64,000 nucleotides of DNA from an uncultured Methanosarcinales archaeon. GTDB taxonomy: Archaea; Nanobdellota; Nanobdellia; Woesearchaeales; CAYMBN01. The stretch spans positions 3,434-67,433 of the forward strand of contig CAYMBN010000005.1 of NCBI GenBank assembly GCA_964388715.1, in the 5' to 3' direction. The notes beneath the pieces are model-generated. The model did no database searches, was not told the origin of the DNA, and was given only the letters and a program-made list of their open reading frames with translations. Below, piece by piece: positions 16,202-62,400 of the stretch; position 1 is the stretch's first letter; the number at the start of each line of letters is the position of its first letter. The translations under genes were made by a program, and so were the position numbers.

Positions 16202-16204
16202 TTC

Positions 16205-17578: not shown

Positions 17579-17694
17579 TTGGACGGTCATAGGGGCTTGG
17601 TTCACCTGTTCCCATTTCGAACACAGAAGTTAAGCAAGCTTCCGTTCTTAGCTGTACTGTACTTATGTACGGGAAACTAAGAAAGCTGTCCACC
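17579..17694 (+). rRNA. 5S ribosomal RNA, unlinked to 16S/23S
   Basis: GGACGGTCATAGGGGCTTGGTTCACCTGTTCCCATTTCGAACACAGAAGTTAAGC… matches the universal 5S loop/helix pattern. The 5' GGACGG pairs with the 3' CTGTCC. GC-richer than its surroundings and followed by T6. Confidence 0.8.
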
Positions 17695-17700
17695 TTTTTT
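17695..17700 (+). terminator. oligo-T archaeal terminator after 5S rRNA
   Basis: TTTTTT directly after the 5S 3' helix. Confidence 0.4.
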
Positions 17701-18443
17701 TAAGATTTTTCTTGGAAAATTTTATTCACTTCTTCCAACTGTTCTTTATTACCTATATCCCACCATTTTTCACTAGAAATCATTGCATAAACATTTGTTT
17801 TATTCACAAGATACCTAATTACTTCTCCAATATTATCGGGCCTATCTTTAGAGGTTATGAAATCTTTAAACAACACTAAATCATGTTTTTTAAATATGTA
17901 ACAAAGAGTCGCAGCAAAACTAGTTTTTGGGTTTTCTGGTTTTTCTTCAAAACCAATTATTTTATTATTCTCATCAACCTCAACAACACCAAACTTTTTA
18001 GCAAGCTTTTGTTTTTCTATCAAATCATATATTGCAATAACAGAAGCATTATTTTTATTTGAGATCTCATTCAGCACAGCCAAGCTAAATTCAAACAAAT
18101 TGTCACCACCAATTATCATTAAGTCATCATTTATATCTTCTTTTTCAATAACAAAAGCCATATCACCTACAGCACCAAGTCTGTCTTCATTAGTTAAAGT
18201 ACCATCATTAATAATCTTAACCTTCTTATCAAAATTCAAATTATTCTTCCATTCTTCAAAAACACTAAAAAACTTATTATTTGTAACAATAAAGATTTCA
18301 TCAATTTCATCAACCAATTTAATTTTATCAAGAATATGTTCCATCATAGGTTTTTTACCAATCATAAGAAGAGGTTTTGGTTTATTTAATGTTAAAGGAT
18401 ACAACCTTGTTGCATAACCAGCAGCTAATATTATACATTTCAT
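17700..18443 (-). CDS. sugar-1-phosphate nucleotidyltransferase (NDP-sugar pyrophosphorylase)
   Basis: MKCIILAAGYATRLYPLTLNKPKPLL signature of the NTP_transferase family. Confidence 0.75.
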   Translation of the reverse strand: MKCIILAAGYATRLYPLTLNKPKPLLMIGKKPMMEHILDKIKLVDEIDEIFIVTNNKFFSVFEEWKNNLNFDKKVKIINDGTLTNEDRLGAVGDMAFVIEKEDINDDLMIIGGDNLFEFSLAVLNEISNKNNASVIAIYDLIEKQKLAKKFGVVEVDENNKIIGFEEKPENPKTSFAATLCYIFKKHDLVLFKDFITSKDRPDNIGEVIRYLVNKTNVYAMISSEKWWDIGNKEQLEEVNKIFQEKS

Positions 18444-19519
18444 TTTATCTCAACAATCACACTCTTTTCTTTACTATTAACTTCTTTAACAACTTCATGC
18501 TTTTTTAATTTTTCCTTAATTTCCTTAAAAGAAAACTTTTTTCTTGCTTTTTTAAGTTCTAAAAGAATTTCCTTAATGATTTGATAATTGTTATAAATAG
18601 TCTCACCTTTTTCTTTATTCTCTTTTTCAGAGTTTTTTAGTTTTTTAATGGTTTTTTCTTGATCAACAATAATCCTCTTTAATTTAGTAATTTCTTTATT
18701 TTCCATCTGAGGTTGAATTACCTGTTTTGATAAAACATAATCTAGTGCTTCATTATAACTCTTAAAAAGTTCTTTTTTTTCTTTTTCATAAACTTTTAAA
18801 TTAAAGGGAATAATATCTCCCTTAACAACTTGAGCACTAATCTTTTCTTTTGTAATTTTCTTAATTTCTTTTAATATTTTCTTAATATCCTTCACTTGTG
18901 AAGGTTTATTATTCTTATCAATATTTAATCTTAAACATATTTCTTCTGAATAAATTCCACCCAAACCTAATTCAAGGGCAAGAGATTTTACTAAATTTTC
19001 TTTATTTGATTTTCCCAACAATTCTTTTAATGTCTTTTCAGTCAATTTAAAAAAATTATATTCTCTTCTAGGAGATTTATATAACTCATTAGGTTTAATT
19101 GTTCTATCTTTCCATTTTTTATATTCAATTGCACTCAAAATCTTATTATCTTTTAATAAAATTAAGTTACCTTTTCCAAACAATTCAACAATTAAATTAA
19201 ATTTTTCATCCTTTGTTTCAATCTCAATATTAACAACCCTTTCAGAATCAATCTGCTTTACTTCTCTAATTCTTCCACTAGTAAGTTTTTTTCTTAAAAA
19301 CATACAAAAACCAGTTGGAGAATCATATTTTCCTTTCTCCTTGGTCAAATAAATAAAATTTCCAGATATTCTCAACAATTTTTTACCTTTATTAGGAACA
19401 TGCAACTGGAATAAAACATTAACTTTATCATGATAAATTTTATCTATTTTACTACCTACTAAAATCTGAAGTTCATTTACAATATAATGAATTTCAATAC
19501 TTGATAAGTTTCTTTTCAT
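18440..19519 (-). CDS. NFACT-N domain protein (truncated Rqc2/NEMF/FbpA-like) with K/E-rich coiled-coil tail
   Basis: FCMFLRKKLTSGRIREVKQIDSERVVNIEIE…LIVELFGKGNLILL matches the NFACT-N core; no NFACT-R/DUF814 region. Confidence 0.55.
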   Translation of the reverse strand: MKRNLSSIEIHYIVNELQILVGSKIDKIYHDKVNVLFQLHVPNKGKKLLRISGNFIYLTKEKGKYDSPTGFCMFLRKKLTSGRIREVKQIDSERVVNIEIETKDEKFNLIVELFGKGNLILLKDNKILSAIEYKKWKDRTIKPNELYKSPRREYNFFKLTEKTLKELLGKSNKENLVKSLALELGLGGIYSEEICLRLNIDKNNKPSQVKDIKKILKEIKKITKEKISAQVVKGDIIPFNLKVYEKEKKELFKSYNEALDYVLSKQVIQPQMENKEITKLKRIIVDQEKTIKKLKNSEKENKEKGETIYNNYQIIKEILLELKKARKKFSFKEIKEKLKKHEVVKEVNSKEKSVIVEIK

Positions 19520-34185: not shown

Positions 34186-36438
34186 ATGAAAAATAAACTT
34201 TTATTTAGTATTGCAATTATTATAGCTTTGTTAATAACAATAAGTTCTGCTCTTAGTGACGAACCTATTCCAGCACCAGAACCAGTTCCACCAAGTTCCG
34301 GTGGAAGTGGAGGAGGTAGCTCAGGAGGAGGTTCAAGTTTTGGTATTGAAATTGAACATATGAGAATTGAATACCCAATAATCCTTAATGCTGAAAGTGA
34401 ATGTAGATTATATTTATGGAATAATAAGAATGAAGAGGTATATAATGTTACATATACAATCTATGAAGAAATTGAAAATGGAAATACAATAATTAGTAAC
34501 CAAATTGCACATGGAACTATTGAAGAAATTGAAGAACATGATGGCAAAACCGTATTATTCAATTGGATCCCACATTCAGTAAACACTAAAAAATTAATTG
34601 TTATTGTTAATATTAATGGTACAGAAAGTTCTTATGAAAGAGAAATCTATCATGTTTCAAGCGAAACAGGCTATGATTTAGATATTAGCAGTGAAATGAT
34701 ATCTGATGAAGAAGAAATATTTGTTAATCAAAATTTTTTCATGAACTTGACCATTAGAAACAGAGGTCCTGATACATCAGATTATGAAACACTTAATATA
34801 TACATACTAGAAAACATGATGCAATATTGGGGTGAAAACGAAGAAGAAATAACGTCTCACTTAGAATTTGTTGAATCAGCTAATCTAAACCAATTACAAC
34901 CATATGAAAGAGTTAGTTACACCTTATCTCCAGAATTTGATTCTCCAGGATTTCATTTAATCTATTTCAACTTATCAAATGGAAATGATTTATTTAGAGG
35001 CAATAGTGAAGAAGGAGAAGAAATTATTGTAAGAACACATGGAGCAGATGTATTAGGTTTCATAGATTTACATGGAAGACTTACAGTAGGATATGAAAAT
35101 GAAATTGAAGTTGAATTATTAAACATTGGTGACCAAGATGCTGAGAGTATTATTGTAAGTCTATATGATGGAACAACATTGATTGGAACACAAACTCTTG
35201 AAGAAATTGAAGAAATGGACCATGATGAAGTTGAATTTAGTTGGACACCTCAATCTACAGGTGAACACACATTAAGACTTATGGTAACTTGTTATAATGA
35301 TGCTTATTTAGAAGACAATGAAATGTCAATAACAGTACAAGTACAGGAACCAGAATTCCCTGTTGATGAATTTGAACCAGATAATACATGGCAACAAGCA
35401 ACAACAATATCAACAAACAATGTTGTACAAGAACATACTAATTTTCCAAACCGAGATGAAGATTACTTTAATTTTCATGCAGAACAAGGAATTACCTATA
35501 TAATGGAAACATTGGAAATTAGTGGTGATACTTATATGGAATTATTTGATACTGATGGTGAAACAAGATTAATAAGTAATGATGACTATCAAGGATTAAG
35601 ATCAAGAATTGAATGGACATGTGATCAAACAGGAATGTATTATGTAATGATTAGACAACTTGGTTCAAGGATGAACGGTGATTACAAGTTTACAATTTAT
35701 CCAATAAATTTCAACCAACCAAAAATGGATTGGTTCGATGGTGATACAACTGATTTATCACAAGCAGACTTATCTAATGTTGATAATTTAGTTTTAGAAA
35801 ACACACAAAATGGTAAAATTGACTTTTCAGGTAAATCTCTAGACTTAAGCAAAACACTTAACATAAATGATTATGTTAAAATTACCGAGGCAACAATATT
35901 TATTGATTCAAACAACATACCTGCTTTAAATCAACCAGCAAGATTAACAATGTACAATCTAAAATTTACTGAACCTAAAATCATGAAAGATGGTAAAGAA
36001 TGTAGTGAATGTTCAATCATAAGTTATGAAAATAATCAATTAATATTTGATGTACCACATTTTACAACGTACCAAGCTGTTGAAGGAAGACAAAATGTAG
36101 GAAGCTACAGCAGAAAATTTGGTCCAAAACAACATGTTAAAATGAATAAAGTAACTATGAATGATCAATTTGAACAAGGTGAAGATCTACAAGTAAGAGT
36201 AACTATGAACAATGATGGTGAAACTAAATTAAAAGACGTTTCAGTAACAATTGTAATACAAGAACTTAATGTTAGAAGGAAAATTGGACCATTTGATCTT
36301 AAGAAAGAAGAAGATATAAACCAATTAGTATTAGCAGAAATGCCAGAAAATGTTAAACCTGGAGATTATGATGTTAGAATCACAATCAGCAACGACTTTA
36401 TGAAGAGAGTTAAATATAGAACAATTACTATCATATAA
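34186..36438 (+). CDS. secreted/N-anchored surface protein with G/S-rich linker, CARDB-like beta-sandwich repeats and a PPC (pre-peptidase C-terminal)-like domain
   Basis: N-terminal hydrophobic anchor, SSGGSGGGSSGGGSS linker, repeated xNxG-type segments and an EPDNTWQQATTI…YYVMIRQLG PPC-like region. Confidence 0.5.
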   Translation: MKNKLLFSIAIIIALLITISSALSDEPIPAPEPVPPSSGGSGGGSSGGGSSFGIEIEHMRIEYPIILNAESECRLYLWNNKNEEVYNVTYTIYEEIENGNTIISNQIAHGTIEEIEEHDGKTVLFNWIPHSVNTKKLIVIVNINGTESSYEREIYHVSSETGYDLDISSEMISDEEEIFVNQNFFMNLTIRNRGPDTSDYETLNIYILENMMQYWGENEEEITSHLEFVESANLNQLQPYERVSYTLSPEFDSPGFHLIYFNLSNGNDLFRGNSEEGEEIIVRTHGADVLGFIDLHGRLTVGYENEIEVELLNIGDQDAESIIVSLYDGTTLIGTQTLEEIEEMDHDEVEFSWTPQSTGEHTLRLMVTCYNDAYLEDNEMSITVQVQEPEFPVDEFEPDNTWQQATTISTNNVVQEHTNFPNRDEDYFNFHAEQGITYIMETLEISGDTYMELFDTDGETRLISNDDYQGLRSRIEWTCDQTGMYYVMIRQLGSRMNGDYKFTIYPINFNQPKMDWFDGDTTDLSQADLSNVDNLVLENTQNGKIDFSGKSLDLSKTLNINDYVKITEATIFIDSNNIPALNQPARLTMYNLKFTEPKIMKDGKECSECSIISYENNQLIFDVPHFTTYQAVEGRQNVGSYSRKFGPKQHVKMNKVTMNDQFEQGEDLQVRVTMNNDGETKLKDVSVTIVIQELNVRRKIGPFDLKKEEDINQLVLAEMPENVKPGDYDVRITISNDFMKRVKYRTITII

Positions 36439-42530: not shown

Positions 42531-42614
42531 TTTACTCTATAAAAACAGAAACATATTTAAATATATATATTTATTCAATATTTAAGTAATATTCATACTA
42601 AAAAGGGTGATTAG

Positions 42615-43802
42615 ATGAAAAAAAAAGCTCAAGAAACAGGTGGTATGGCTGCAGCTCTTGTTGCAATAATTGCCTTATTAATTGTTTTATACATATTATT
42701 TCTTCCTCCTGAGGACAGGAGAGATATTTTAGAAGAAGGTAGTATTGATTCAGGTACAAGTAGTAGTGGTGATGACAACATTTCAATTCTACTTGAAAAA
42801 AATCCAGGAAAATTAACATATTTATCACAAAATAAAATTGAACATGACATAAACACAATCAATTTGTATAGTATGACAGAAGGCAAAATAATAAAAGAAG
42901 AATTATTAGTTAATCCACAAAGAAGTGTTTTCAACGAAATTAAAGCTGAAATTACCTTTAAATTGGATAATATTGAGAACACAGATAATGTACTTTTCAC
43001 ATTCAATGTGGACGAAGCTATCGGAAAACTTATTATTACATTAAATGGGAAACAGATTTTCAAAGAAAAGTCAGATTCTTCCACAATGGGCCCAATAAAA
43101 CTCTCAAAAGAATTATTAAATGTTGATAATACCCTTGAATTTGGAGTTTCAAGCCCAGGAATTGCATTTTGGAGAACAAATGAATACACTTTAAAAAATG
43201 TCAAAGTAATTGCTGACATAACAGATTTATCAGGATTAAAAAGTAAATCAACATTCTTTTTAACAGAAGAAGAAAAAGTTAATCTTGAAAAAGCTAGATT
43301 AAGATACTTTGCCAATTGTGAAGTTGGAAAAGTAGGTAAATTAAAAGTTTCAATAAACAGTTTCCAAATATTTAGTGGAATTCCAGATTGTGGTTCACTA
43401 AATCCAATTGAATTTTCTCCAGACTACTTAAACATACACGAAAACAATCTTGAATTTGAAGCTGACTCAGGAACCTATCTCCTTGACAGAATTCAAATAA
43501 AAACAGAATTAAAAGAATCAGTTGACTTGATATATGACTTTGATATCAACAAATCAACTTATGAAGATCTTGATGAAAATTATGTAAGAATTAAGTTTGA
43601 ATTTGCTGATGATACAGAAGATAAAGAAGCAGAAGTTATTGTCAATGGCCACAGAATGCAATTTAGTACAAGCGAGGAAAGTTACGAAAGAAACATCAAC
43701 AATTATGTTGAAGAAGATATTAACACAGTAAAAATAGTCCCAAAGAAGACAATGTACATCAGAAAGTTAATTGTTGAAGTTGTTGAAAACGACGAAGATT
43801 AA
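42615..43802 (+). CDS. N-terminally membrane-anchored hypothetical protein with S/G-rich linker and extracytoplasmic domain
   Basis: KKK…MAAALVAIIALLIVLYILFL signal-anchor, then a 330-aa domain with no recognised motifs; first gene of a five-gene same-strand cluster. Confidence 0.5.
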   Translation: MKKKAQETGGMAAALVAIIALLIVLYILFLPPEDRRDILEEGSIDSGTSSSGDDNISILLEKNPGKLTYLSQNKIEHDINTINLYSMTEGKIIKEELLVNPQRSVFNEIKAEITFKLDNIENTDNVLFTFNVDEAIGKLIITLNGKQIFKEKSDSSTMGPIKLSKELLNVDNTLEFGVSSPGIAFWRTNEYTLKNVKVIADITDLSGLKSKSTFFLTEEEKVNLEKARLRYFANCEVGKVGKLKVSINSFQIFSGIPDCGSLNPIEFSPDYLNIHENNLEFEADSGTYLLDRIQIKTELKESVDLIYDFDINKSTYEDLDENYVRIKFEFADDTEDKEAEVIVNGHRMQFSTSEESYERNINNYVEEDINTVKIVPKKTMYIRKLIVEVVENDED

Positions 43803-43838
43803 TTTTTTTTATTTTTTTGTGAAAGAAAGAGAGGGAAA

Positions 43839-46529
43839 ATGGATTTGTTTCTAAAAAGGATGGGGAAAAAGGCAGGGTTGTCTCCTAATGTTTTCTCATT
43901 TAAAAAAAAAGACAAAAACAAAAGTTTAACAGTAAAAGATATTGAAAAGTTAATAAAGTTAGCTATTTCTGAACTTGCAAAAATTCAAAAATCACATTCT
44001 AAAATAGAACAAGCACCAGCAAATATACAAAAACAATTTGATAATCTTAATAAAAGGATAACAGAACTTCAAACAATTAAATCACAACCAAATCTTCTTA
44101 ATAACAAAGCTGTTCAAAAAAATTTATCTATCTTACTCCAAGGTTTAGCTCAAAAACAAGAAAAAGAATTTGAGGAATTTGAAGAAAAAAGAGATAAAAA
44201 GATAAGAAAACAGAAACAAAAAGATGACCAAGCAAAACTAAAAGGAAAACTATCAGAAATTCATAAAGAAAGAGAACGTAGGAAAAGGGAAGGAACCTGG
44301 CAAGGTTATGGAAATGAACAAAAGGGGACTGAAGCTGTGATTAAAACATTACAAGAGAATAGAGATTTAGCATACAAATTAATGATGTTATCAAAAAAAG
44401 AAAACAAAAAAGAAGATATTAATTACTACAAAGAAAAATTTAACAAATTTCAAAGAGATTTACAAAAAAAACAAAAAGAATACAGAGATAAAGGTGGAAA
44501 AACAGGCATGCGTAAGCTAAAAGAAAAAGAACTTGAACTCGAAAAAGTTAAAATCAAAGAATTAGAAAAAGAAGGTGAATTAACAAAAGAAGAAAGTGAA
44601 GTTCTACAAAAAGAAATTGAAGAAAAAGAACAGAAAAAATCAAAATTTTGGGGTAAAGCTAAAGCATGGGCACGTATGGATGCTACTGAAGGTGTAAAAA
44701 AAGGTTCAAAAGCTTTTGGAGGTTGGCTTGGAAAAGGTATTGAAAAAGGTACTGGATTACAAGTTAATAAATGGGGCAATTATGCTGCAAACAAACTCGG
44801 AAAAGCTACAAATGCTATTAAAGGAGCTGGAAAAGCTCTTGATAAAGGAACAGATACTTATACACCAACACTTAAGAAATGGAGTAAGAACATTCTTAGT
44901 GGAATAACAGGTGCTGGGGGCCTTATGGGTGGTGTTGCACAAGAAGGTGTTAAAAACATGTTCAGTGGTGGCCATAATACACTTATATGGTTAGGATTAT
45001 TCTTATGGTGGATTGATTGGAAAGCGTATGCTTTTAGGATAGGTAATCAAGGAAGCTTTATCAAACTATTTGGTGTAAAACTATTTTGGCCAATTGGAAG
45101 TGTACAACTAGATTTCTTTGTATTAATCTTTTTAGTAGTATGGTTAGTATTAGCAGAAAGCCATTGGCAATCATTCTTTTACATTTTAACAGCATTTGCA
45201 CTAGAAGTATTCTTACCAGGATTAGGAAAACAATTTGGTTTATTAAGCACACCAATAGTTCAACACATATTTAACAATGCAATCTGGCCTTGGTGGTTGT
45301 TAATTATGGGTATTTTTTATAATAAAAGACGTGGTAATGAATCCAAATTAATAACTTTTGTTTTTGTTTCGTGGGCATTATTTTGGATATTTATAATTAT
45401 TTCATCAACATGGGTTGCAGGATTAGCAGACATGACAGAACAATTAACAATAGAAGAACAAAACGAATTACAAGATGCAATAACAGAAAGATGGTATGAT
45501 ACTTGGGGAAGTGACTTTAAAATGTTTTGGGATTGTTATATTAGTATGGATACAATAGTAGGAACCATATCAGGTGGAGAAACACCTGAACAATGTTTAA
45601 ATCGTTTGAAAAAAGAAGCAGAACAAACAGTTGAAGGTGAAGTAGACCAGGAAATAGAAGAATATGTTTCACTTAAAGTTGATTTCAAATCAGGACAAAA
45701 TACAATTTACTTTGCTAACCAACCAATCTCAGTTTTAATCCAAGGAAAAGATCCAACAGTCCAGGAAGATACAGAATCAACAGAAAAGATTCCACCTATT
45801 AAATTTGGTTGTGTATTTATTAAAGAAGGAAACAACCAAAACACAATTAATTGTAAACCTACTCCAGAAACACTTGAACTAGGAAAAGATGAAATAACAG
45901 AAACAATACTCTGCAAACCTGAAGAACCTTTAACTGATGGCAAGTACACTATAAAATTCTTTGCTAAATTAGAAAAAGTAAAAACAAATACTAATTTAAT
46001 AAGATTATTTACTGGCAAAAACAATTATGGAAAAATGACAATGGAAGAAAGAGCAAGAAAACTACTTCAAAAATTTCCTAGTACAGATTACAGTTCAAAA
46101 TCAGAACCAGAATTTGTAAGACTTAATCTAGCAACAGAAAAACCATTAATTCCTTTAGGAGAAAAAGGATTTGTATTAGAAAGTTCAGTTGAAAATATGG
46201 ATAATGGAAAAATATTAAAAATAAATGAAATTAATGTAGAATTACTCAAGTTAAAATTTAATGATCAAGAACATTCACTAGAAATCACAAATCAATGTTT
46301 ATATGAAGAACAAGATAACAGATTAGTTATAACAAACTTTGAAAGAGACTTCAGTTTGATCAAAAAAGGTAATCAAATCAAATTACCACCATGTAGATTA
46401 ACTGCAGCTAATTTTGAGGATTTAAACGTTGTAAGAGTAGTTAAGATTGATTCATTCATTAATTATGATTATGAAATCACAAAAAAACATGATTTTAATG
46501 TATTAGGAGGACAATCAGAAATAGAATGA
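43839..46529 (+). CDS. 896-aa hypothetical polytopic membrane protein: about 370-aa K/E-rich coiled-coil N-region, G/K/A-rich amphipathic segment, about 6 TM core, 370-aa C-terminal domain
   Basis: Composition and hydropathy read from the translation; no recognised catalytic motifs. Confidence 0.5.
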   Translation: MDLFLKRMGKKAGLSPNVFSFKKKDKNKSLTVKDIEKLIKLAISELAKIQKSHSKIEQAPANIQKQFDNLNKRITELQTIKSQPNLLNNKAVQKNLSILLQGLAQKQEKEFEEFEEKRDKKIRKQKQKDDQAKLKGKLSEIHKERERRKREGTWQGYGNEQKGTEAVIKTLQENRDLAYKLMMLSKKENKKEDINYYKEKFNKFQRDLQKKQKEYRDKGGKTGMRKLKEKELELEKVKIKELEKEGELTKEESEVLQKEIEEKEQKKSKFWGKAKAWARMDATEGVKKGSKAFGGWLGKGIEKGTGLQVNKWGNYAANKLGKATNAIKGAGKALDKGTDTYTPTLKKWSKNILSGITGAGGLMGGVAQEGVKNMFSGGHNTLIWLGLFLWWIDWKAYAFRIGNQGSFIKLFGVKLFWPIGSVQLDFFVLIFLVVWLVLAESHWQSFFYILTAFALEVFLPGLGKQFGLLSTPIVQHIFNNAIWPWWLLIMGIFYNKRRGNESKLITFVFVSWALFWIFIIISSTWVAGLADMTEQLTIEEQNELQDAITERWYDTWGSDFKMFWDCYISMDTIVGTISGGETPEQCLNRLKKEAEQTVEGEVDQEIEEYVSLKVDFKSGQNTIYFANQPISVLIQGKDPTVQEDTESTEKIPPIKFGCVFIKEGNNQNTINCKPTPETLELGKDEITETILCKPEEPLTDGKYTIKFFAKLEKVKTNTNLIRLFTGKNNYGKMTMEERARKLLQKFPSTDYSSKSEPEFVRLNLATEKPLIPLGEKGFVLESSVENMDNGKILKINEINVELLKLKFNDQEHSLEITNQCLYEEQDNRLVITNFERDFSLIKKGNQIKLPPCRLTAANFEDLNVVRVVKIDSFINYDYEITKKHDFNVLGGQSEIE

Positions 46530-47557
46530 AAAAAATAATATTTTTAGTTATAATTGTACTTTTAATAACTTCCTGTGGTAATTTAAAAGATTTTTATACA
46601 ACAGACAGAACAACCACCCCCACTATTACCGGTGACCAAGATATCACAAGACAAATTCCAGAAAGACCAAACTTTAGACAAGGCACTTCTGGACTTAAAC
46701 TCAACTTTGTTCAAAATAAACCAGAAAATGAAATTAAGTTTGGTGATTCATTTATCATTGCCCTTAAAATTCACAACCAAGGAGCAACAGACATAATAAA
46801 TGGAAAAATTAGTATTGAAGGATTACTTGATCAGCATGACGCAGTAAACATGGTAAAATCAGAATATGTTGACATCTATGAGTTCCAACCATTTGATGTA
46901 AAAGGAAAAAGCATGATATATTTTGATGGACAAAATATTGAATTAAAAGTCAAGGCAAAAGCAAAAAGCATTGATCCTAAAAAGGAGAAAACACCTGTGA
47001 GTTTTGAATTAATTGCAAAATATCCTTATGAAACAATAGCAGCCATCCCAATCTGTATTAATCTTGATTCAATTGAAGATAACACACATGAATGTAAAAG
47101 AAATACTATTTATACCTTATCAGGTGGTCAAGGTGCGCCTGTTGCTGTTACACAAATTGAACAAGATCTAATTGATAAAGGAGAAATCAGTGAAAAACAA
47201 AACAAAATCAATTTAAGATATACAATCACTGTTGAAGATAAAGGGAATATTGGTGAACGTATTGATGGTGATATAAATATCAAAGTATTCTTATCCAAAG
47301 ATAAAGAAATAACTCAACATTGTGAACCATTAAAAGTTAAAGAAAGAATTATACTGGATAAAGAAGGAAAACCACAAAAAGCAGAAACCAAAGTAAAAAA
47401 ATGGGTATGTGAACTTGAAGATGTTTATAATGATAAAGATATTCAAAAAACAGAATATACTTCCTTAATAAGAGTAGAATTAAAATATAATTATGTAACT
47501 ACTACCACCAAATCATTATATATTATAAAATCAAAGGATAGCACTGATACTACCTAA
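46526..47557 (+). CDS. lipobox lipoprotein, paralogue 1 of 3 (GQGAPVAVT family)
   Basis: Signal peptide plus LITSC lipobox; shares GLxxNF, CxnC…GQGAPVAVT, NxGEG, CEP and LKYNY blocks with the next two genes. Confidence 0.55.
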   Translation: MKKIIFLVIIVLLITSCGNLKDFYTTDRTTTPTITGDQDITRQIPERPNFRQGTSGLKLNFVQNKPENEIKFGDSFIIALKIHNQGATDIINGKISIEGLLDQHDAVNMVKSEYVDIYEFQPFDVKGKSMIYFDGQNIELKVKAKAKSIDPKKEKTPVSFELIAKYPYETIAAIPICINLDSIEDNTHECKRNTIYTLSGGQGAPVAVTQIEQDLIDKGEISEKQNKINLRYTITVEDKGNIGERIDGDINIKVFLSKDKEITQHCEPLKVKERIILDKEGKPQKAETKVKKWVCELEDVYNDKDIQKTEYTSLIRVELKYNYVTTTTKSLYIIKSKDSTDTT

Positions 47558-47604
47558 AGTATACCGAAAAACTTATATACTCAAAAAAAGAACACTATTG
47601 TAAA

Positions 47605-48627
47605 ATGAAACTTTTGAACAAGAGTGAAAAAGGTTTAGAAAAAAGGGATAGAAAACTTATTCTCTCTGTAATTCTTATAGCAACACTACTAATCACAGCT
47701 TGTGGCCAAATAGGAGATACTGGTGATTCCACAAGAGTAGAAGGTGCTGAAAGAGGTGGTGGCATTATTGCTGAAAAGGTTTACACAGGTACACAAGGAT
47801 TAACAATGAACTTCTTAGAAAATACTCCTCCTGATTTTATATATGAAGATGATAAAATGACTGTAGGTGTTGAAGTACGTAATTTAGGTGCACGTAAAAT
47901 TGAAAGCGAAAGTGATGGTTACCTTTACTTAAGCGGTTTTGATCAAAAATTATTTGGAGACCATAAACCAGATGGAGAAAGTTTAAGGGGTTTAGAACCA
48001 AAATCCGAATTTAATCCAGAAGGTGGATATACAGTGCGAACATTCACACTTGGTGAAGCAATACTTCCAAAAGGTGTAGATGTATATCCAGCCAAAATGA
48101 GAGTTACTTTGTGTTATAATTATCAAACAATTGCAAACCCAATTGTTTGTGTTGATCCAACAATATATGATCCAACCATTGTAAGAGCAAGTGAATGCCA
48201 AATGGGACAAGTTAATGTTGGTAATGGTCAAGGTGCACCTGTTGCTGTAACAGCTGTACAAGAAAAAATGGTTGGAAAGGATAAAGTACTATTCACAATC
48301 CAAATAAGCAATGTTGGTGAAGGAACAGTATTATTAAATCAAGGAGATTGCCAACCAGGTGCAAAAATAGATAGAGAAGATTTAAACAAATTACATGTTG
48401 ATTTTATTAGGTTCAAAGGAGTTAATATTAGGGATAATTGTGAACCAATTAAAAATATGGAAACAAAATATGAATTAAGATTAACAGATGGAACAGCAAC
48501 ATTATATTGTAATGCTGATATCGCACGAGATACATCTGCTTACACAACCCCATTAGAAATTGGATTAGGATATGCTTATACTAATTATATTGAAAAACAG
48601 GTAGAAGTAAGAAATTTACCTGAATAA
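47605..48627 (+). CDS. lipobox lipoprotein, paralogue 2 of 3
   Basis: LITAC lipobox; same conserved blocks (NGQGAPVAVTAVQEK, SNVGEGT, DNCEP, LGYAY). Confidence 0.55.
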   Translation: MKLLNKSEKGLEKRDRKLILSVILIATLLITACGQIGDTGDSTRVEGAERGGGIIAEKVYTGTQGLTMNFLENTPPDFIYEDDKMTVGVEVRNLGARKIESESDGYLYLSGFDQKLFGDHKPDGESLRGLEPKSEFNPEGGYTVRTFTLGEAILPKGVDVYPAKMRVTLCYNYQTIANPIVCVDPTIYDPTIVRASECQMGQVNVGNGQGAPVAVTAVQEKMVGKDKVLFTIQISNVGEGTVLLNQGDCQPGAKIDREDLNKLHVDFIRFKGVNIRDNCEPIKNMETKYELRLTDGTATLYCNADIARDTSAYTTPLEIGLGYAYTNYIEKQVEVRNLPE

Positions 48628-48645
48628 AAAGGAGGGTAATTTAAA

Positions 48646-49683
48646 ATGGTAAACAAAAAATTAACAATTGTTTTAACATTATTTGTATTAATTATGTTCT
48701 TAGCAGGATGTGATGGTAGTAGAGAACCAAGCGGAGATACTAGTACAAGTACTGCTTCTGGTGGACAAGGAAGATCTTTTATTGGGGGAGATGAAGGAAT
48801 TGATGTAAGATTTATGACAGGCGCACCTCCAAGAGAAGTATATGATACAGATTATTCATTTGGCATCAATGTAAGATTAGAAAATGTTGGTGAATGGGAT
48901 ATAAAAGATGCTGATGAAGATGGTAATGTTGACGCAAGAATGAAAGTTACAGGTATTGATCCATCTGACTTTGGTAAAACAAGTTCTGATTTAATTAAAT
49001 ATAGTTCAGATGAATTAATTGGTGCACATCTTGATTCAGAAGATAATGAAATTGATGGAGTAATCACAAACATAGATTTCCAAGATTTAAAATATTCAGG
49101 AGAAGTAACAGGACAAGTTGAATTCATTGTAAGAGCAGATCTCTGTTATGAATATGGTACAAAAATTAACTCAAAAGTATGTATATTAAAAGATTTAATT
49201 GGAAAAACAAGAAAAAGCGGAGAAGACCCATTCTGTGAACCTACTGAAGATAAAACAAGATTAACAGAAAATAGTGGAGCTCCTGTACATGTAACATCAT
49301 TTAAACAAAGTGTAATGGGAACAGACAAAATTTCTGTAAGATTTGACATTGAACATGTAGGAGAAGGTTATATCTACAAATCTAACACAGACTGTCAACC
49401 AACATTAGAAGATAAAAATAAAATAAAAGTAATAGTAGATGCAGGTTTACAAGATATAACATGTAGTGGATTACAAAATGGTGCTCAAGCCACCGACAAG
49501 GAGAGTTATAGCGGAGACATTAAATTACATGGTGATCAAGGAAGTGAAATAAACACAATCCTTTGTACAATTCCCTTACCAGCTGATGGTAGAGAAGACT
49601 ATGAAAAACAAATTACAATAACATTAAAATATGCATACGAAGACTTTATAGACCAGCCATTATTAGTTAAACATACTGAATAA
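48646..49683 (+). CDS. lipobox lipoprotein, paralogue 3 of 3
   Basis: FLAGC lipobox; conserved blocks (NSGAPVHVTSF, HVGEGY, DCQP, LKYAY). Confidence 0.55.
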   Translation: MVNKKLTIVLTLFVLIMFLAGCDGSREPSGDTSTSTASGGQGRSFIGGDEGIDVRFMTGAPPREVYDTDYSFGINVRLENVGEWDIKDADEDGNVDARMKVTGIDPSDFGKTSSDLIKYSSDELIGAHLDSEDNEIDGVITNIDFQDLKYSGEVTGQVEFIVRADLCYEYGTKINSKVCILKDLIGKTRKSGEDPFCEPTEDKTRLTENSGAPVHVTSFKQSVMGTDKISVRFDIEHVGEGYIYKSNTDCQPTLEDKNKIKVIVDAGLQDITCSGLQNGAQATDKESYSGDIKLHGDQGSEINTILCTIPLPADGREDYEKQITITLKYAYEDFIDQPLLVKHTE

Positions 49684-49753
49684 ACTCTTTCTTTCTTTTT
49701 TATTATTTTACTATCACTAAATATATAAATAAGTAAATATTTCTTATACCAAC

Positions 49754-50710
49754 ATGGAAAACACTATATGGACTGAAAAATACAGACCAAAAACATTCAC
49801 AGAAGTAAAAGGACAAAAAGATATAGTGAAAAGGGTTAAAGCTTTTGTTGAACAAAAAAACATGCCCCACCTTATGTTTGCAGGTCCAGCTGGTGTTGGT
49901 AAATCAACATTAGCAATAGTAATTGCAAAAAAGCTATTTGGTAGCACATGGCACAATAATTTTGTTGAGTTAAATGCTTCTGATGAACGTGGCATTGATG
50001 TTATTCGAATAAAAGTTAAAGATTTTGCAAGAACAAAAGCAATAGGAGATGTTCCTTTTAAAATTATTTTTCTTGATGAATGTGATGCCTTAACACGAGA
50101 AGCTCAACAAGCATTACGTAGAACAATGGAAAATTATACTCAAACATGTAGATTTATTTTATCATGTAATTATTCCTCAAAAATAATTGATCCAATACAA
50201 TCACGATGTGCTGTATTTAGATTTAAGTTATTAGATAAAAAAGAAATAAGATCTATTACTGAACATATTGCTAAAGAAGAAAAACTAAAAATAGATGAAC
50301 AAGCTGTTGAAGCACTCTATCAAGTTTCTGATGGAGATTGTAGAAGAGTAGAAAATATATTACAAAGTTGTGCTGCTATGGGTAAACACATTACAGAAGA
50401 ACTTGTTTATTCAATGGCATCTGTTGCACAACCAAAAGAAGTTAAAAATGTTCTTGAATTAGCACTAGAAAACAAATTTGTTGAGTCACGTAACAAATTA
50501 CTTGATACAATGCTCAATTATGGTTTAAGTGGAATTGACATAATAAAACAAATTCAAAAAGAAGTATGGAATCTCAAAATTGACAATAAAAAGAAAGTAT
50601 ATTTAATTGATAAATGTGGCGAGATCGAATTTAGAATGACAGAAGGTAGTGATGAATTTGTTCAATTAGAAGCATTATTAGCACAAGTTGTTCTAGCTGG
50701 TTCTCAATAA
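49754..50710 (+). CDS. rfcS: replication factor C small subunit
   Basis: Walker A GPAGVGKST, DECD, SRC motifs (IDPIQSRCAVFRF). Confidence 0.85.
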   Translation: MENTIWTEKYRPKTFTEVKGQKDIVKRVKAFVEQKNMPHLMFAGPAGVGKSTLAIVIAKKLFGSTWHNNFVELNASDERGIDVIRIKVKDFARTKAIGDVPFKIIFLDECDALTREAQQALRRTMENYTQTCRFILSCNYSSKIIDPIQSRCAVFRFKLLDKKEIRSITEHIAKEEKLKIDEQAVEALYQVSDGDCRRVENILQSCAAMGKHITEELVYSMASVAQPKEVKNVLELALENKFVESRNKLLDTMLNYGLSGIDIIKQIQKEVWNLKIDNKKKVYLIDKCGEIEFRMTEGSDEFVQLEALLAQVVLAGSQ

Positions 50711-50734: not shown

Positions 50735-50998
50735 TTAAACAATATCTTCTTCTGCAATAACCATAAAGTCTCCCATTGCTATTACAGCACTAAAAGGAAT
50801 CAATATATGTCCTTGTTTATCCTTTTCTAATTCAAGCTTTTCTGTGTAAGATGTTGGATTAGTAATTACTAAATGTATTAACTCACCAGAACGTGTTTCA
50901 AAAATAATATCACCAACTTCACCAAATCTTTTTCCTGTTTTGCTAACAACTACTCTTCCTAGTAATTCTCTTGCAAGTTTTTTTTCATCATCTGCCAT
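50735..50998 (-). CDS. PRC-barrel domain protein
   Basis: 87 aa; LLGRVVVSKTGKRFGEVGDIIFETRSGEL pattern typical of archaeal PRC-barrel proteins. Confidence 0.5.
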   Translation of the reverse strand: MADDEKKLARELLGRVVVSKTGKRFGEVGDIIFETRSGELIHLVITNPTSYTEKLELEKDKQGHILIPFSAVIAMGDFMVIAEEDIV

Positions 50999-55987: not shown

Positions 55988-56434
55988 GTGGATATATTAA
56001 AAAGTGATTTTGATTATTCATATGAAAAAATTCTTTCATCAATCAATCGAAAAGAAATATTAATTCCACTAAAAGTATTCAAAACAAAACTAAGTCCTGC
56101 TGAATCACTTGTTAAATACTTAAAAGAAAATTGTAATCTAAAATTATCACAAATTGCAGCATTGACTAATAGAGATCAAAGAGGAATCTGGCTCACATAT
56201 AATAATTCAGTGAAAAAACATAAACAATTATTTATTATTCAAAATCCAAAATACCTAATCCCAATTTCTATTTTTTCAAATCGTAAACTAAGCATTCTTG
56301 AAAATTTAGTATTTTACTTAATCAAAACTTATAATCTCACAATCAAACAAATTACTGAATTACTTACTAAAAAATCTAGCACTATTTGGAGTATTAAGAA
56401 TAGAATTAAAACAAAATTAAAAACAAATGAATAA
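55988..56434 (+). CDS. small protein with two tandem GerE/LuxR-type (sigma-70 region-4-like) HTH motifs
   Basis: LSPAESLVKYLKENCNLKLSQIAALTNRDQRGIWLTYNNSVKK and LSILENLVFYLIKTYNLTIKQITELLTKKSSTIWSIKNRIKTK both fit the LuxR HTH pattern; GTG start, so the start is uncertain. Confidence 0.45.
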   Translation: MDILKSDFDYSYEKILSSINRKEILIPLKVFKTKLSPAESLVKYLKENCNLKLSQIAALTNRDQRGIWLTYNNSVKKHKQLFIIQNPKYLIPISIFSNRKLSILENLVFYLIKTYNLTIKQITELLTKKSSTIWSIKNRIKTKLKTNE

Positions 56435-59400
56435 AAAATTCAAAAAACAGGATAGAGAAATAAGAGATTTACATAATAAGATTATTATTTGTAAAAAATA
56501 CAAACAAGAAATACAAGCAAATACAAACAAAATAAACAAATTATTATTTGAAAATAAAATAAGTGAACAAGAGCATAAAGATTTAATTTACAAATATTTA
56601 CAAGGAAAAACACAACAAGAATGGATCAATATATACAACAACCACATTAAAACATGTCAACAAAAAATACATGAAATAGAATTTAACAAGAGTAAATTCA
56701 AAAGCATAACACTAATAACTTTAATGTCTTTTATTTTAATATTTGGATTAATTTATAATGGTATAAATCCAATAACAGGATTAACAACATTTGAACAACA
56801 AACAATTCAAGCAGAATCATTAAGTAATAATTGGGTCATAGTTGAAAATTCAGAATATAATAATAATCAAGCAATTATGTCTGCTTTTATAGGAGACAAA
56901 TTTGAATATACTTTTAATGGAACATCAATAAGCTTGATTACACAAAACAGATATGATTTTGGTATAATTCAAATAACAATTGATAACACAGTACAAGAGA
57001 TTGATTTGTATAATAACAATACACAATTTAATATAATCCATGAACTAGCAACAGGCCTAGAAAATAAACAACATAATCTCACAATAGAAGTTTTAGAGAA
57101 CAAAAACAATAATTCAGAAAGCCATTTTGTAGTAATAGATGGATTTATAATAACATCACCAGAAGAACCAACACAACAAGAAAATATCACAAATATAACT
57201 ATAAACCAAACAATCTTTATTGAAAACACAACAAATATTACACAACCAACAGAGAACATAACCAACATTATTCAACCAACACAAAACATTACAAATATAA
57301 CAATAAATCAAACAATCCATACTGAAAATATAACTAATATTACTCTTCCACAAGAAAACACAACAACCACCGTAGAAAATACAACAAACATTACAACTCC
57401 ACAGCAAAATCAAACAAACATAACATCACAAGAAAACATTACAATAATAATCAATGAAACAACTGAAAACATTACAACACAAATCAACACAACAATCAAA
57501 GAAGAAATAACACAAGGTTTTGCAGAAATTAACAAACCAGTTAAATGGGTTAAAAAGATTGAGAATACAACAAAAACAGACTTACCAAAACAAGCATTTA
57601 ATATAAGTGTCTTTAAAACAGAAAAAAGAAAAGGATTAGGTATTGCATCAACAAAAAGAACAAAGATAAAGAAAGTAAAAATCAATGATTCAGGTGTTTT
57701 AAAAGAATTATCAGCATACAAATACAAGAAAAAAGGCATTGGAAAGATCACAGGCGCTGCAATAGGTGGTGAAATCAATGTTTTCAAACAATTCTGGTAC
57801 TGGTTATTAAGCTTAAGAAACTCAATAACAGGATACGCTGTTAGTGATGTTAATGAATTAGTTATTGAAGAAAATGAAACCAAGTTTGAAATAGAATACT
57901 TCACAGACGCACCAGTTGCAACTGAAAATGAAATCACTTATTATAAAAAACAAATAACAATCTCAAGTGAATTACATTATGAAAACATTTTAGCTTATAC
58001 AAATATCACAGAAACAAACCAAAATAACATTAAATTATATCATCTTATCAACAACACAAGAGAATTAGTAACAAATATAACTTATATTGATCAAAACAAT
58101 AACAATCTCATTGACAAAATTCAATGGATAGTTCCACACTTAAGCAATGAAAGTTATGAAATAGAAATAACAATCCTCAATGTTCAATCATATCCTACTG
58201 TTGGCGGAAACTGGACAGTAATGTTCAACACAACAGGAAAAGCTAACCTAACAATAAAAGCAATCAGAGATACAACATGGAGTAACAGTAATGAAAACCA
58301 TGATCTAAAATTCTTAGAAATCAAATGTAACAACACAATCCTTAATTACACCTGGACAAACAATTCTGTATTTATAGAAAATTATACTTGTAACCAAACA
58401 AGTTATGAAACAAGCAAAGTAATCACATCAGGAGTTCATGATTTATTATTCCAATTCGGCAATCAATCAGCAGAAGCACATAATTTTGCTTCAATCAATT
58501 TATCCAACTCAGATGCATCATGGTATGGGGAAGCACCTTCAGATGTTCTTGGACATTTTATTATGGGTTCGGGCGATATTAATAATGACAGTTTTAGTGA
58601 TCTTATAATTGGTGCTTATGCAAATGGTTATGGCGGTGGAACTTCCGGTAAAACTTATTTAATATATGGTCCAGTAAATGAAAATAATGTTAATATAAGT
58701 AATGCTAATGCATCATGGCATGGGGAAGCAGCTGGTGACAATTCAGGAATAACTGTTGCAGGAGTAGGTGATGTTAACAATGATGGATTTGGTGACATTG
58801 TAATTGGAGCTTCATCAAATGATGATGGAGGAGATTCTTCAGGTAAAATATATTTAATTTATGGGCCAACTTATGATACAAATATTAATTTAAGTAATGC
58901 TAATGCTTCTTGGTATGGAGAATCTGGAGGTGATTTCTTAGGTTGGTCACTCTCAAAAGCAGGTGATGTTAATAATGATGGGTTTGATGATATTATAGTT
59001 GGTGCTAATGGAAATGATTATGCAAGAAATGGTGCTGGTAAAGCTTACTTAATTTATGGGCAGGATTACACTGGAACATTTAACATAAGTACTGCTAATG
59101 TATCATGGCATGGAGAAGCAGATGACAAATTAGGCGATTTTGTTTCAAATGCAGATGATGTAAACAATGATGGATTTGATGATATTTTAATTGGAGCTCC
59201 TAATAATGATAATGGTGCTACCTGGACAGGAATGATATATTTAGTTTATGGGCCTGCAAATGGTGTAAATAATAATGTAAGTACAGCCAATGCTTCATGG
59301 TATGGGGAAAACACACTTGATAATGCTGGTAGTACAGGAGAAATCGCAGCAGCAGGTGATGTTAATAATGACGGATTTGATGATATTTTAATTGGAGTAA

Positions 59401-62400
59401 AAGTTAATGATGATTATGGAAATAATATTGGTAAAGTATATTTGATTTATGGACAGAATTATAATACAACAAACGTTAATTTAAGCACTGCTAATGCTTC
59501 TTGGTATGGTGAAGCTGCTGTTGATAGGTTAGGAGACGCTGTTACAGGTGCAGGTGATTTTAATAATGATGGATTTGATGATATTTTAATAGCTTCTCTC
59601 CGTAATGGCTTTGGAGGGAACCTAGCAGGCAGAATATACTTAATTTATGGGCCAGCAAGTGGAAAAAATATGAACATAAGTAATGTTACAAATATTTCAT
59701 GGTATGGAGAAAACCAAACAGATGGTGCTGGTAAAGTCCTTTCAAGTGCAGGAGATGTTGATAATGATGGTTATAATGATATTTTAATTGCTTCTGGCAA
59801 TGATATGGGTGGAACTGGTGCTGGAAAAGTATACTTAATCTATGGAAGTAGTCCATTCACAAGTCCAACATTAACAATAAACAAAAATATTACACAAGTT
59901 AATGAAAGTTATAATACAATTCAAATTAATTGGACAGCATCACACAATTCTCCTATAATAACTGCTTTATTTAACATAACTTTCCCTAATGGAAGTTTAC
60001 TTAGCAATTCAACTTTAAGTTCAGGAAATGTAAGTTTAAACCTCACCAATCTTACAGCATTAGGTACATATACAATAAATTTATGGGCAAATAATACCTA
60101 TAATTTAACTAATGTAACAAGTGACACATTCAGTGTTAATGATACAAATCCTCCAAACATCACATTAATTATACCAACAAACAATACTAAAAATTACACA
60201 CATTATAATATAAATTTTTATTATAATGTTACTGATGTTTTATCAAATGTAAACAATTGCTCATTAATTATAAATAATATAATTAATCTAACAAACATTA
60301 CAATTGATCAATCACTAAGTAGTTTACATTTTAATCAAACATTTACAGATGGACAATACAACTGGTCTATTAATTGTACTGATAATGCTAGTAATATTGG
60401 AGAAAGTAATATTTTTAATTTAACAGTTTTAATGGACACAACTTCTCCATCTGTAAATTTAGATAATCCAACAAATAATTTTAACGCAAATCAAATAAAT
60501 ATTTCTCTTAACTGTTCTGCTACTGACAATGAACAATTAAAAAATGTCACCATTTATACAAACATGACAGGATCATGGCAAGCTAATTATACAGGCAGTG
60601 TTAGTGGAATAAGTAATTCAACTAATGTAACACTCACAGGATTAGGTGATGGAACTTACTTATGGAACTGTCTTACATATGATAGTGCAGGTAACAATGC
60701 ATGGAACAATACTAATTACACATTTAATATTGATGCAACCCCACCAAACATCTCATTAATGTCGCCTGCTAATAATTCAAATTGGACAGATAATACACTT
60801 GTTGTTTTTGTTTACAATACAACTTCAACTGATGTTACCAATTGTTCATTAATCATAAACAATAAAACATACAAAACAAACTCAACAATAACACAGAACC
60901 AAATCCTAAATTTTTCTAACATAGTAAACAATGGACCAAACAATTGGAGCATTAACTGTACTGATAATTTTAGTAACACAATCAGTTCAAAAACATGGAT
61001 AATTAATGTTAATTATACAAAGAATCACACTTTGTATAAAGTTTGGGATACTGGCACAATTGATCTTTCACTTGCTTCCTTAGATATATTTGATTATTCA
61101 CAAGATAATAACAAGAATGAAATAATAGTTGGAGGATTTGGAGATTTGTTTGCTTACTATGCAAACGGAACACAAATCTGGAACAGTACTGATCCTGTTG
61201 GATTTATTCGAGACATAGAAGTATTTGATATTGGAAATGGTTTTAATGATACAATAGCTGTTGCAGATTCAACAGCAGGATTCAAAATATATGATAAAGA
61301 TGGAAACAAGTTATGTAATAATTCCTACACTTCTAGTGCAGAACAAACAATAAGTGTCGGAGATTTTGATAGAGACAATCAAAGTAGGGAAATTGTTTTA
61401 CTAAACTGGATATTACCTAACACATTCAAATTAAAAGCATTCAATTCAAGCTGTAACTTATTATGGGAATACTCATTAACATCTATAACAACAGAAACTG
61501 AAACAGGTGACTTTGATGGTGATGGTTACAAAGATGAAGTTGCCTTAATAAGTAATGGTACATTATATATATTCAATAGTACAGGTGGAGTTAGATGGAA
61601 CACAAGTTATTTAGGAGATGCAACAATGTCATTAGAAGTATTTGATATTAATAATGATACAGATGATGAAATAATCATTGGTGTAAGATATGCCAAAACA
61701 ACACACATGATAATGGCATACAATGGTTCTGGTACTGTAATGTGGAACAACACAGATGTTTCTGGTCAAATACACGAAATAAGATTTGATGATTTTGACA
61801 ATGATGGAAGAAAAGATGATATTGCTTCTGCAGACACTGATAATGCCTTAGCTGTTGTCATAGATAGTGAAGGAAATACTCTATGGAGCCATGATTTTAG
61901 TAGTGGTACAACTGTTTATTCTCTTACAACAGGAGATATCAATAATGATAATAGAACAGATATTGTAACAACAGAAGGTACAAATGCCAATATTTATGGA
62001 ATTGAGGATGGAGGAACAATTGCTACTTTCACAGATCCAACTACTAATATTGGATTAATTGACTCTGACGGAAGCATAGTAACAGCTGATTTAGATGGTG
62101 ATGATTATTTGGATATAATTGTTGCAGAAATAAGCGGAATATTATATTTACTAGAAGCAAGACCTGAAAATAATACAGCACCAAATATAACACTAAATAG
62201 TCCAACACACAATAACAACATAAGTAATTCCACAATTAACTTTAATTGGACTGTGATTGATAATTTAGATTTAAATTTACTTTGTAATCTAACAATTGAT
62301 GATATAGTAAATGCTTCAAGTATTAAATCCTTAAATAATACACCAAATAATTATACAGTTGATAACTTTAATGATGGGTCACATAACTGGAGCATGACTT

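Follow-up and report, generated by a model that had tools for sequence, protein, structure and literature searches.

The window analyzed here is a stretch of 64,000 nucleotides (nt) from an uncultured archaeon of the Woesearchaeales lineage (assembly GCA_964388715.1, contig CAYMBN010000005.1, positions 3,434 to 67,433 of the forward strand). It consists of low-GC (~29 %) archaeal core genome and carries, on the forward strand, a cluster of five open reading frames (ORFs), here denoted g1 to g5, all products of which are predicted to be anchored on the external side of the cytoplasmic membrane. The first two genes, g1 (42615-43802, 395 amino acids [aa]) and g2 (43839-46529, 896 aa), are followed by three lipobox-containing paralogues, namely g3 (46526-47557, 343 aa), g4 (47605-48627, 340 aa), which is the most conserved of the three, and g5 (48646-49683, 345 aa). 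The original prediction for this locus, made from the sequence alone, described five genes tightly packed on one strand with ATGA-type overlaps. An overlap of this type (4 nt) is found only at the g2/g3 junction, the remaining three being gaps of 36 (g1/g2), 47 (g3/g4), and 18 nt (g4/g5). Upstream of the cluster, on the opposite strand, are the genes for phenylalanyl-tRNA synthetase (PheRS), TrmB, and Pelota; downstream lie the genes for the replication factor C (RFC) small subunit, a PRC-barrel protein, a Cas4-like nuclease, and a class Ib tRNA synthetase, the last label resting on the Pfam domain tRNA-synt_1b in the orthologue from the related locus L002.

None of the five proteins passes any family cut-off of Pfam or NCBIfam, none has a match among the PADLOC anti-phage defense models, and none reaches the threshold in sequence searches against PDB. 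As had been proposed from the sequence, the Pfam and NCBIfam searches with the five proteins revealed no ATPase, permease or channel, transporter, or protease family; no surface layer (S-layer) family was found either, and Pfam scans of the family members gave the same outcome. Profile and Foldseek searches, likewise, assign none of the proteins to any known family of transporters or S-layer components. The source records contain no annotation names for the five proteins, and no description of the cluster was found in the searchable literature. Lacking a family in Pfam or NCBIfam, relatives of solved structure, and a description in the literature searched, the cluster qualifies as the undescribed system that it was suspected to be. 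At the family and system level, nothing matches it; the fold classes involved, immunoglobulin (Ig)-like sandwiches and, probably, jelly-roll domains similar to carbohydrate-binding modules (CBMs), are ubiquitous. To call the system categorically new is not justified because no new mechanism has been demonstrated.

Conservation and gene order in Woesearchaeota

For comparative analysis, 28 loci from distinct GTDB species (Woesearchaeota/Nanoarchaeota) were retrieved with the g1 pattern AFW[RK]TNE[YFA], which covers only part of the g1 family, and mapped with hidden Markov models of the three protein families. Among these loci, together with L002 and the window, 20 have the complete arrangement between the Pelota and RFC genes, with g1 and g2 followed by precisely three lipoprotein genes. 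The Woesearchaeota genomes that carry the cluster are metagenome-assembled genomes (MAGs) of the GTDB Nanoarchaeota/Woesearchaeales type. L002 has the identical five-gene layout, flanked by Pelota and RFC; its g1 is 40 % identical to that of the window (E=1e-93), and its g2 is alignable only from residue 326 (E=6e-17). The CG10 Woesearchaeota genome contains a split cluster, with g1-g2-g3 located beside Pelota (L004) and g4-g5 beside RFC (L001), ~24 kb away; in L003, g4-g5 likewise adjoin RFC. The CG10 genome also has a gene for a 273-aa protein with a Bro-N domain between g1 and g2 (9325-10146 of L004, forward strand). Bro-N domain genes are typical of mobile elements and viruses.

The best cross-genome matches of the lipoproteins are concordant with gene position in 60 of 60 comparisons (20 of 20 for g3), and therefore each of g3, g4, and g5 represents an orthologous group of ancient origin with a fixed place in the cluster. 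In 25 of the 26 loci, the stop codon of g2 and the start codon of g3 either overlap or are at most 6 nt apart, with the exact 4-nt overlap in 15, and the two genes are accordingly spaced as would be predicted for translational coupling. Median pairwise identity, computed across 17 genomes, is 73 % for TrmB, 67 % for RFC, 51 % for PheRS, and 45.5 % for Pelota; the values for the cluster are 36.7 % (g1), 33.6 % (g4), 30 % (g5), 28 % (g3), and 24.7 % (g2, for which the alignments cover only part of the protein). By this measure, g1 diverges slightly faster than Pelota. The genes of the cluster are, as anticipated, co-conserved and syntenic in relatives, and these sequence comparisons indicate that the cluster is a vertically inherited, single-copy module of Woesearchaeota that retains a fixed order across the sampled genomes.

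Architecture of the five proteins

The g1 protein starts with a single hydrophobic helix (approximately residues 4-32), in agreement with its initial description as a signal-anchored protein, which is followed by an acidic/Ser-Gly linker and repeated beta domains. Its relatives include 262 homologues, ~40 % identical and all unnamed, with a family consensus that consists of K[KR][GA]Q, the hydrophobic helix, a PP break, and the acidic/Ser-Gly linker. The motif [KR][GA]x immediately precedes the helix in 111 of 120 homologues, with Q at +1 in 97, and takes the form K-A-Q at residues 4-6 of the window protein; g1 thus carries the predicted archaeal class III signal-peptide motif ([KR][GA] ahead of an N-terminal hydrophobic helix). 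No type IV filament ATPase, platform protein, or prepilin peptidase is encoded in the window or in the annotated neighborhoods L001-L004. The repeats are related to one another in hhalign comparisons (first and second repeats, 97 %, E=2e-11; second and third, 52 %, E=1.5e-4) and share LNG and NxLxF motifs in the pattern LNG...NxLxF; across the family, FW within AFWRTNEY and two Cys residues are invariant. At the sequence level, the repeats weakly resemble galactose-binding-like carbohydrate-binding jelly rolls such as PL4 domain III, GH2_N, and CBM_35 (best E=8e-4, all matches sub-threshold), with isolated family members weakly matching GH2_N, CBM_35, and other galactose-binding-like domains; the PDB profile search with g1 returned no match. 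A relationship between g1 and the lipoproteins was considered and rejected, profile comparison having given none. Four g1 homologues of 550-600 aa (P0128, P0158, P0179, and P0185) contain a Cys-rich insert of ~170 aa between the second and third repeats, with repeated CGDDxDxxCPxGC...DxDCCF motifs (alignment A4, columns ~390-560).

The three lipoproteins were correctly recognized as lipobox paralogues. Direct comparison connects g3 to g4 (E=3e-17), g4 to g5 (E=4e-17), and g3 to g5 (E=1e-3), and their lipobox residues, ITSC, ITAC, and LAGC, respectively, conform to the signal peptidase II-type pattern [LVI][ASTVI][GAS]C, so that all three are predicted lipoproteins. With a relaxed pattern, the lipobox can be recognized in at least 91 of the 96 homologues, most of the others being near-matches, and the lipobox Cys is an invariant column of the alignment. 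The 96 homologues were retrieved with g4, with non-self E-values down to 1e-57, and those matches that have source names are all hypothetical proteins of Woesearchaeota or Nanoarchaeota MAGs. The AlphaFold2 model of g4 (predicted local distance difference test score [pLDDT] 88.6; predicted template modeling score [pTM] 0.79) consists of a signal helix, a disordered linker (residues 37-53), and two Ig-like beta-sandwich domains. Besides the lipobox Cys, the family shares six conserved ectodomain Cys residues and a GGQGAPVAVT motif; as modeled, each lipoprotein would comprise a flexible linker and a disulfide-containing tandem Ig-like beta-sandwich. A Foldseek search of PDB with the g4 model yielded generic matches only, to integrin alpha legs, the AglB C-terminal domain, and VPS26 (template modeling [TM] score ~0.2). 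The CARDB domain scores 12.4 bits on g4, below the Pfam gathering threshold of 22.7, and the member-wise Pfam scan produced weak matches to Integrin_A_Ig_3 and CARDB in 4 of 92 members each (E<=0.1); a BFVD search with the lipoproteins returned nothing at E<=0.001.

The g2 protein can be divided into four regions. Residues 1-270 (43839..44648, forward strand) form a lineage-specific cytoplasmic extension rich in K, E, L, and Q (22 % K, 13 % E), in which a 3.5-residue hydrophobic periodicity, reached by only 3 of 500 shuffled sequences, indicates that it is probably a coiled coil. The long cytoplasmic K/E coiled coil that was originally described thus fits composition and heptad-type periodicity, but it is not conserved across the family: the extension is absent from the L002 and L004 orthologues, and the length of the part that precedes the membrane domain on the cytoplasmic side ranges between 5 and 414 aa, that of the window protein being the longest. 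Residues 271-380 (44649..44978, forward strand) are a positively charged, predicted disordered cytoplasmic segment, the G/K/A-rich composition of which had also been noticed and holds (21/15/12 % over residues 270-380; pLDDT <50 in the model); many g2 homologues have similar G/A/K-rich tails. Residues ~381-534 (44979..45440, forward strand) are the predicted membrane anchor, with the motifs FFLDxG and PWWxLxG, for which the model contains five helices (positions 56-77, 96-113, 118-140, 147-172, and 178-209 of the modeled core; pLDDT ~70) instead of the approximately six transmembrane helices initially counted; the family alignment of this domain includes zero invariant residues.

The remaining region (residues ~535-896; 45441..46529, forward strand), an ectodomain of ~360 aa that the original prediction overlooked, is the best-conserved and best-modeled part of g2, with four invariant Cys residues, an IENxGxG motif, and a terminal YDY strand. 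The model of the g2 core (pLDDT 77 overall and >90 in the C-terminal half) runs from the disordered G/K/A tail through the five membrane helices and a pair of long helices on the extracellular side to two beta-sandwich domains. It gives an N-in/C-out topology with five membrane helices, which is consistent with the charge distribution (+37 in the N-terminal regions and -19 in the C-terminal region) and with the four invariant Cys residues of the predicted ectodomain. Foldseek with this model produced generic tandem beta-sandwich matches that overlap the list obtained with g4, and the membrane domain remained unmatched. Because coiled-coil words dominated the candidates, the homology search with full-length g2 matched only g2 itself; an exhaustive search with residues 326-896 identified 57 representatives, typically of 550-690 aa.

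In hhalign comparisons of domain slices, the second ectodomain domain of g2 matches the second domain of the lipoproteins (76 %, E=2e-5), with cross-domain controls at 3-5 %, and the comparison of the whole profiles gives 28 % (E=6e-4). The first domains show no detectable relationship by the same method, and the comparison of a single g2 C-terminal sequence with the lipoprotein profile is not significant, the signal emerging only from profile-profile comparison of domain slices. These results point to distant homology of the two second domains. Four of the five proteins (g3, g4, g5, and g2 with its ectodomain) have a tandem beta-sandwich module in common. The two lineages that diverge most (L031 and L032) encode, after g1, a protein of ~460 aa with a single helix, the ectodomain of which matches the g2 ectodomain profile (83 %, E=9e-6); a single-sequence comparison is not significant. 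Taken together, the single-helix replacement and the ectodomain match imply that conservation in g2 resides in the ectodomain, with both the coiled coil and the multi-helix anchor being variable; judging from these sequences, the multi-helix membrane domain appears dispensable and is not the functional core. Following g1 and the single-helix g2-like gene of L031, at the position usually occupied by the lipoprotein genes, is a gene (5656-7830, forward strand) for a 724-aa protein that is rich in N-glycosylation sequons and has a canonical class-III-type N-terminus (MQKKGQQSFLSVFAILLFF). A relationship to TatC, raised by one PDB profile match (E=0.0019, accuracy 0.52, bias 8, gappy alignment), was rejected: the alignment is biased and of low accuracy, Pfam TatC matches 0 of 49 family members, and the lipoproteins have no twin-arginine motif.

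Transcription signals and surroundings of the cluster

A TATA-like A/T-rich element read from the sequence, TTTAAATATATATA (42557..42570, forward strand), is a candidate archaeal promoter located 45-58 nt upstream of the g1 ATG, within the 84-nt divergent Pelota/g1 intergenic region, and a Shine-Dalgarno-like GGGTGAT (42606-42612) precedes g1. The T-rich run CTTTCTTTCTTTTTTATTATTTT (49686..49709, forward strand), right after the g5 stop, is labeled a candidate terminator because oligo-T tracts serve transcription termination in archaea. Together, the TATA-like element and the T-rich run would fit a single transcription unit. Scans for sigma-70 promoters and intrinsic terminators remained at background level, and these models do not apply to an archaeon. 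A T7 run between the g1 stop and g2 (43812-43818, forward strand) could, speculatively, act as a partial archaeal terminator and give more transcript of g1 than of the downstream genes. The start of g4 (47605-47640, forward strand) has no obvious Shine-Dalgarno sequence, unlike those of g1, g2, g3, and g5, and most g4 homologues begin ~10 residues after the called ATG in the family alignment, so the true start of g4 may differ.

The RFC small subunit gene (49754-50710) is on the forward strand in the window, but each of the 21 other loci with a detected RFC ORF, L002, L007, and L009 among them, has it on the reverse strand and convergent with the cluster, which points to a local inversion in the window genome. 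The RFC ORF of L014 (15929-18814, reverse strand) encodes 961 aa, compared to ~318 aa elsewhere, suggestive of an intein or another large insertion. The 87-aa PRC-barrel protein encoded beside RFC (50735-50998, reverse strand) occupies the equivalent position in 18 other loci; PRC-barrel proteins (CdpB) have been linked to archaeal cell division. Farther away, positions 1-19500 constitute a surface-glycan biosynthesis neighborhood with genes for a PMT_2 glycosyltransferase, GT1/GT4 enzymes, a DegT aminotransferase, a capsule-synthesis protein, a Wzx/MurJ-like flippase, UDP-glucose dehydrogenase, and a sugar nucleotidyltransferase; a 5S rRNA gene is found at 17579-17694. Directly downstream of the SecY and EMC3/YidC-like genes, a 750-aa secreted protein is encoded (34186-36438, forward strand) that clearly contains a CARDB domain (E=3e-17); with 26.2 bits, it also comes close to the cut-off of 28.4 for the Nup98-type S59 autopeptidase domain. 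Finally, a giant ORF of at least 2,526 aa (56421-63998, forward strand), open at the 3' end of the window, contains many FG-GAP (integrin-alpha beta-propeller) repeats (E=4e-48 over 7 stretches, plus FG-GAP_3) and probably encodes a DPANN surface protein or adhesin.

Possible functions and known systems

The cluster had been interpreted as an envelope-spanning structural complex, such as an S-layer anchor or a cell-cell contact apparatus. The signal anchor and lipoboxes, together with the paired, conserved Cys residues and the ectodomains of beta-sandwich type, lend good support to an extracellular, membrane-tethered assembly, but the 'envelope-spanning' emphasis is weakened because the g2 features on which it rested are not conserved, given an N-terminal region of 5-414 aa and a single helix in divergent lineages. 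Lipoproteins are predicted to be prevalent in DPANN archaea (PMC12462473), and this fits the lipoprotein content of the cluster. The conservation of the ectodomains, the variability of the multi-helix membrane domain, and the lack of a catalytic or transport component argue against a channel, a transporter, or an enzyme, and a housekeeping role in the envelope accords better than a host-specific contact device with the single-copy state, the location in the core genome, and the ancient paralogues of fixed position. Our tentative preference, therefore, is that the cluster encodes a membrane-tethered, glycan-binding, housekeeping scaffold composed of several different proteins. The modules of the g2 ectodomain, g3, g4, and g5 would co-assemble in fixed proportions into a complex of different subunits, the ratio of which the conserved g2-g3 translational coupling would help to set; g1 would bind glycan, either the surface glycans of the cell itself or its S-layer; and the whole would serve as a scaffold or spacer between the membrane and the outer surface layer rather than as a channel, enzyme, or motor.

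Several observations weigh against such a scaffold. In four genomes, only g1-g2-g3 are kept at the Pelota site, and because the cluster is split there into g1-g2-g3 and g4-g5, a single operon is not obligatory. The similarity of g1 to CBM-like domains (PL4 domain III) is limited to sub-threshold matches in 6 of 57 family members, and codon adaptation, tried as a proxy for expression, proved uninformative, being confounded by strand (the reference genes are all on the forward strand). Furthermore, the flanking Pelota, RFC, and PRC genes, as well as those for PheRS, TrmB, and tyrosyl-tRNA synthetase, are as syntenic as the cluster itself, and in small genomes that rearrange slowly, genes may retain their order even when they are functionally unrelated. 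The latter facts, along with the possibility of splitting between g3 and g4, would also be compatible with the absence of any functional unit, that is, with unrelated surface-protein genes adjacent through frozen local gene order. However, the presence of a homologous domain in four of the five proteins, the conserved g2/g3 coupling, and the breakage of split clusters into coherent g1-g2-g3 and g4-g5 blocks, not scattered genes, render this account very improbable.

The main rival of the scaffold, though an unlikely one in our estimate, is an apparatus for attachment to a host or partner cell in which the ectodomains act as adhesins or receptors, which corresponds to the cell-cell contact idea of the original prediction. 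Woesearchaeota have been inferred to be host-dependent (PMC11606122). Domains of the Ig-like and CBM-like kinds are modules from which adhesins are typically built, among the Foldseek matches are integrin legs, RbmA, antigen I/II, SdrD, and pilus adhesins, and the putative glycan-binding g1 could recognize host surface glycans. In host-specific adhesins, variable copy number and rapid evolution are usual, whereas the cluster is single-copy, belongs to the core genome, and keeps a fixed order with ancient, fixed paralogues in many species, and g1 is conserved near the housekeeping level; in addition, the separate giant FG-GAP protein looks more like a typical DPANN adhesin. Could the five proteins themselves be the surface lattice, as a multi-component S-layer? 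All five are predicted to be surface-tethered, and the S-layers of archaea are commonly made of proteins that string together Ig-like beta-sandwich domains and may be anchored by a lipid or a helix. This is nevertheless improbable, given that neither the five proteins nor the family members match an S-layer family, that known S-layers are built of one or two proteins as opposed to five here, that g1 shows more conservation than would be typical of an exposed lattice protein, and that Woesearchaeota MAGs have separately annotated, highly expressed S-layer genes (PMC11606122).

Two further possibilities are an uptake or shuttle device and an accessory of a filament system. The ectodomains might pass hydrophobic or glycan cargo, such as host lipids, to the membrane in an Lpt- or Mce-like manner. 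LptC is a helix-anchored jelly roll, and LptF/G are multi-helix membrane proteins with an ectodomain that work with lipoprotein partners, a layout that the cluster loosely parallels and that we treat as a lead only. That many DPANN archaea have no lipid synthesis (PMC11606122) also speaks for a shuttle of this kind; yet no ATPase or transporter component is encoded in or beside the cluster, the g2 membrane domain is poorly conserved and dispensable, and the Foldseek lists contain no match to an Lpt, Mce, or LolA-type fold, and we regard the shuttle as quite improbable. Alternatively, the cluster could belong to a type IV filament or bindosome-like system, in which g1, after cleavage by a prepilin peptidase, would be displayed on a pseudopilus and the remaining proteins would have auxiliary roles. 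The [KR][GA]x motif ahead of the g1 helix in 111 of 120 homologues, with its frequent Q at +1, and the clear class-III-type N-terminus of another surface protein of a related genome (MQKKGQQSF...) speak for this, and class III signals are known on non-pilin binding proteins (bioRxiv 10.64898/2026.04.22.720090). However, the filament ATPase, platform protein, and prepilin peptidase are missing from the window and the annotated neighborhoods, and in g1 the helix is followed by the PP break and a flexible acidic linker, not by the extended helix on a globular head that is seen in pilins, so that of all the readings this is the one we credit least.

A more ambitious version of the scaffold, which we consider doubtful, is an order-wide, five-subunit envelope machine, anchored by lipids and a pilin-like helix, that organizes the space between the membrane and the surface layer and might double as a conserved platform for docking or for glycan or lipid capture, by which these reduced cells would engage partners; if true, three protein families and a kind of surface assembly, all of them new for archaea, would be defined. 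For the Woesearchaeota, an abundant, uncultured group of archaea with reduced genomes, the present analysis identifies a core five-gene surface module across the lineage and defines three unannotated protein families, with hundreds of members for g1 and the lipoproteins and dozens for g2, supplies confident structural models for two of the five proteins (lipoprotein g4 and the g2 ectodomain), and separates the conserved parts, the ectodomains, from the decoration, namely the coiled coil and multi-helix anchor. Should the proteins form a complex, they would be a new example of the structural use of lipoproteins by archaea, the lipoprotein biology of which has only recently become experimentally tractable. 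With its function inferred, the cluster is a well-delimited target for experimental work on the DPANN envelope.

Five groups of known proteins and domains come closest to the cluster. Like CARDB and integrin-alpha-leg E-set domains, the lipoproteins and the g2 ectodomain are modeled as tandem beta-sandwiches, and integrin alpha thigh/calf domains, AglB C-terminal domains, and VPS26 are the top Foldseek matches of both models; only the general fold class is held in common (TM score ~0.2; sub-threshold sequence matches in 4 of 92 members). The LNG...NxLxF repeats of g1 are weakly similar, by sequence, to galactose-binding-like CBMs such as PL4 domain III, GH2_N, and CBM_35, at the sub-threshold level given above. 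The class III bindosome substrates of Sulfolobus resemble g1 in the [KR][GA]-type motif, hydrophobic helix, flexible linker, and large ectodomain, but no bindosome or type IV genes are found near the cluster, and the g1 ectodomain is probably not a solute-binding fold. The SlaB-type S-layer anchors of Sulfolobales, which are membrane-anchored and hold beta-sandwich ectodomains below the outer layer, would be analogous in concept only: there is no sequence or specific fold similarity, SlaB is one component compared to five here, and it is anchored by a C-terminal helix, whereas the proteins of the cluster are anchored by an N-terminal helix or lipid. Finally, g3-g5 share with the archaeal lipobox lipoproteins that depend on AliA/AliB in Haloferax volcanii (PMC12462473) the n-h signal region ending in the lipobox Cys. 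The known archaeal lipoproteins are mostly substrate-binding proteins or enzymes; in contrast, g3-g5 are unassigned tandem Ig-like sandwiches that form a fixed set of three paralogues and share their operon with two proteins anchored by helices.

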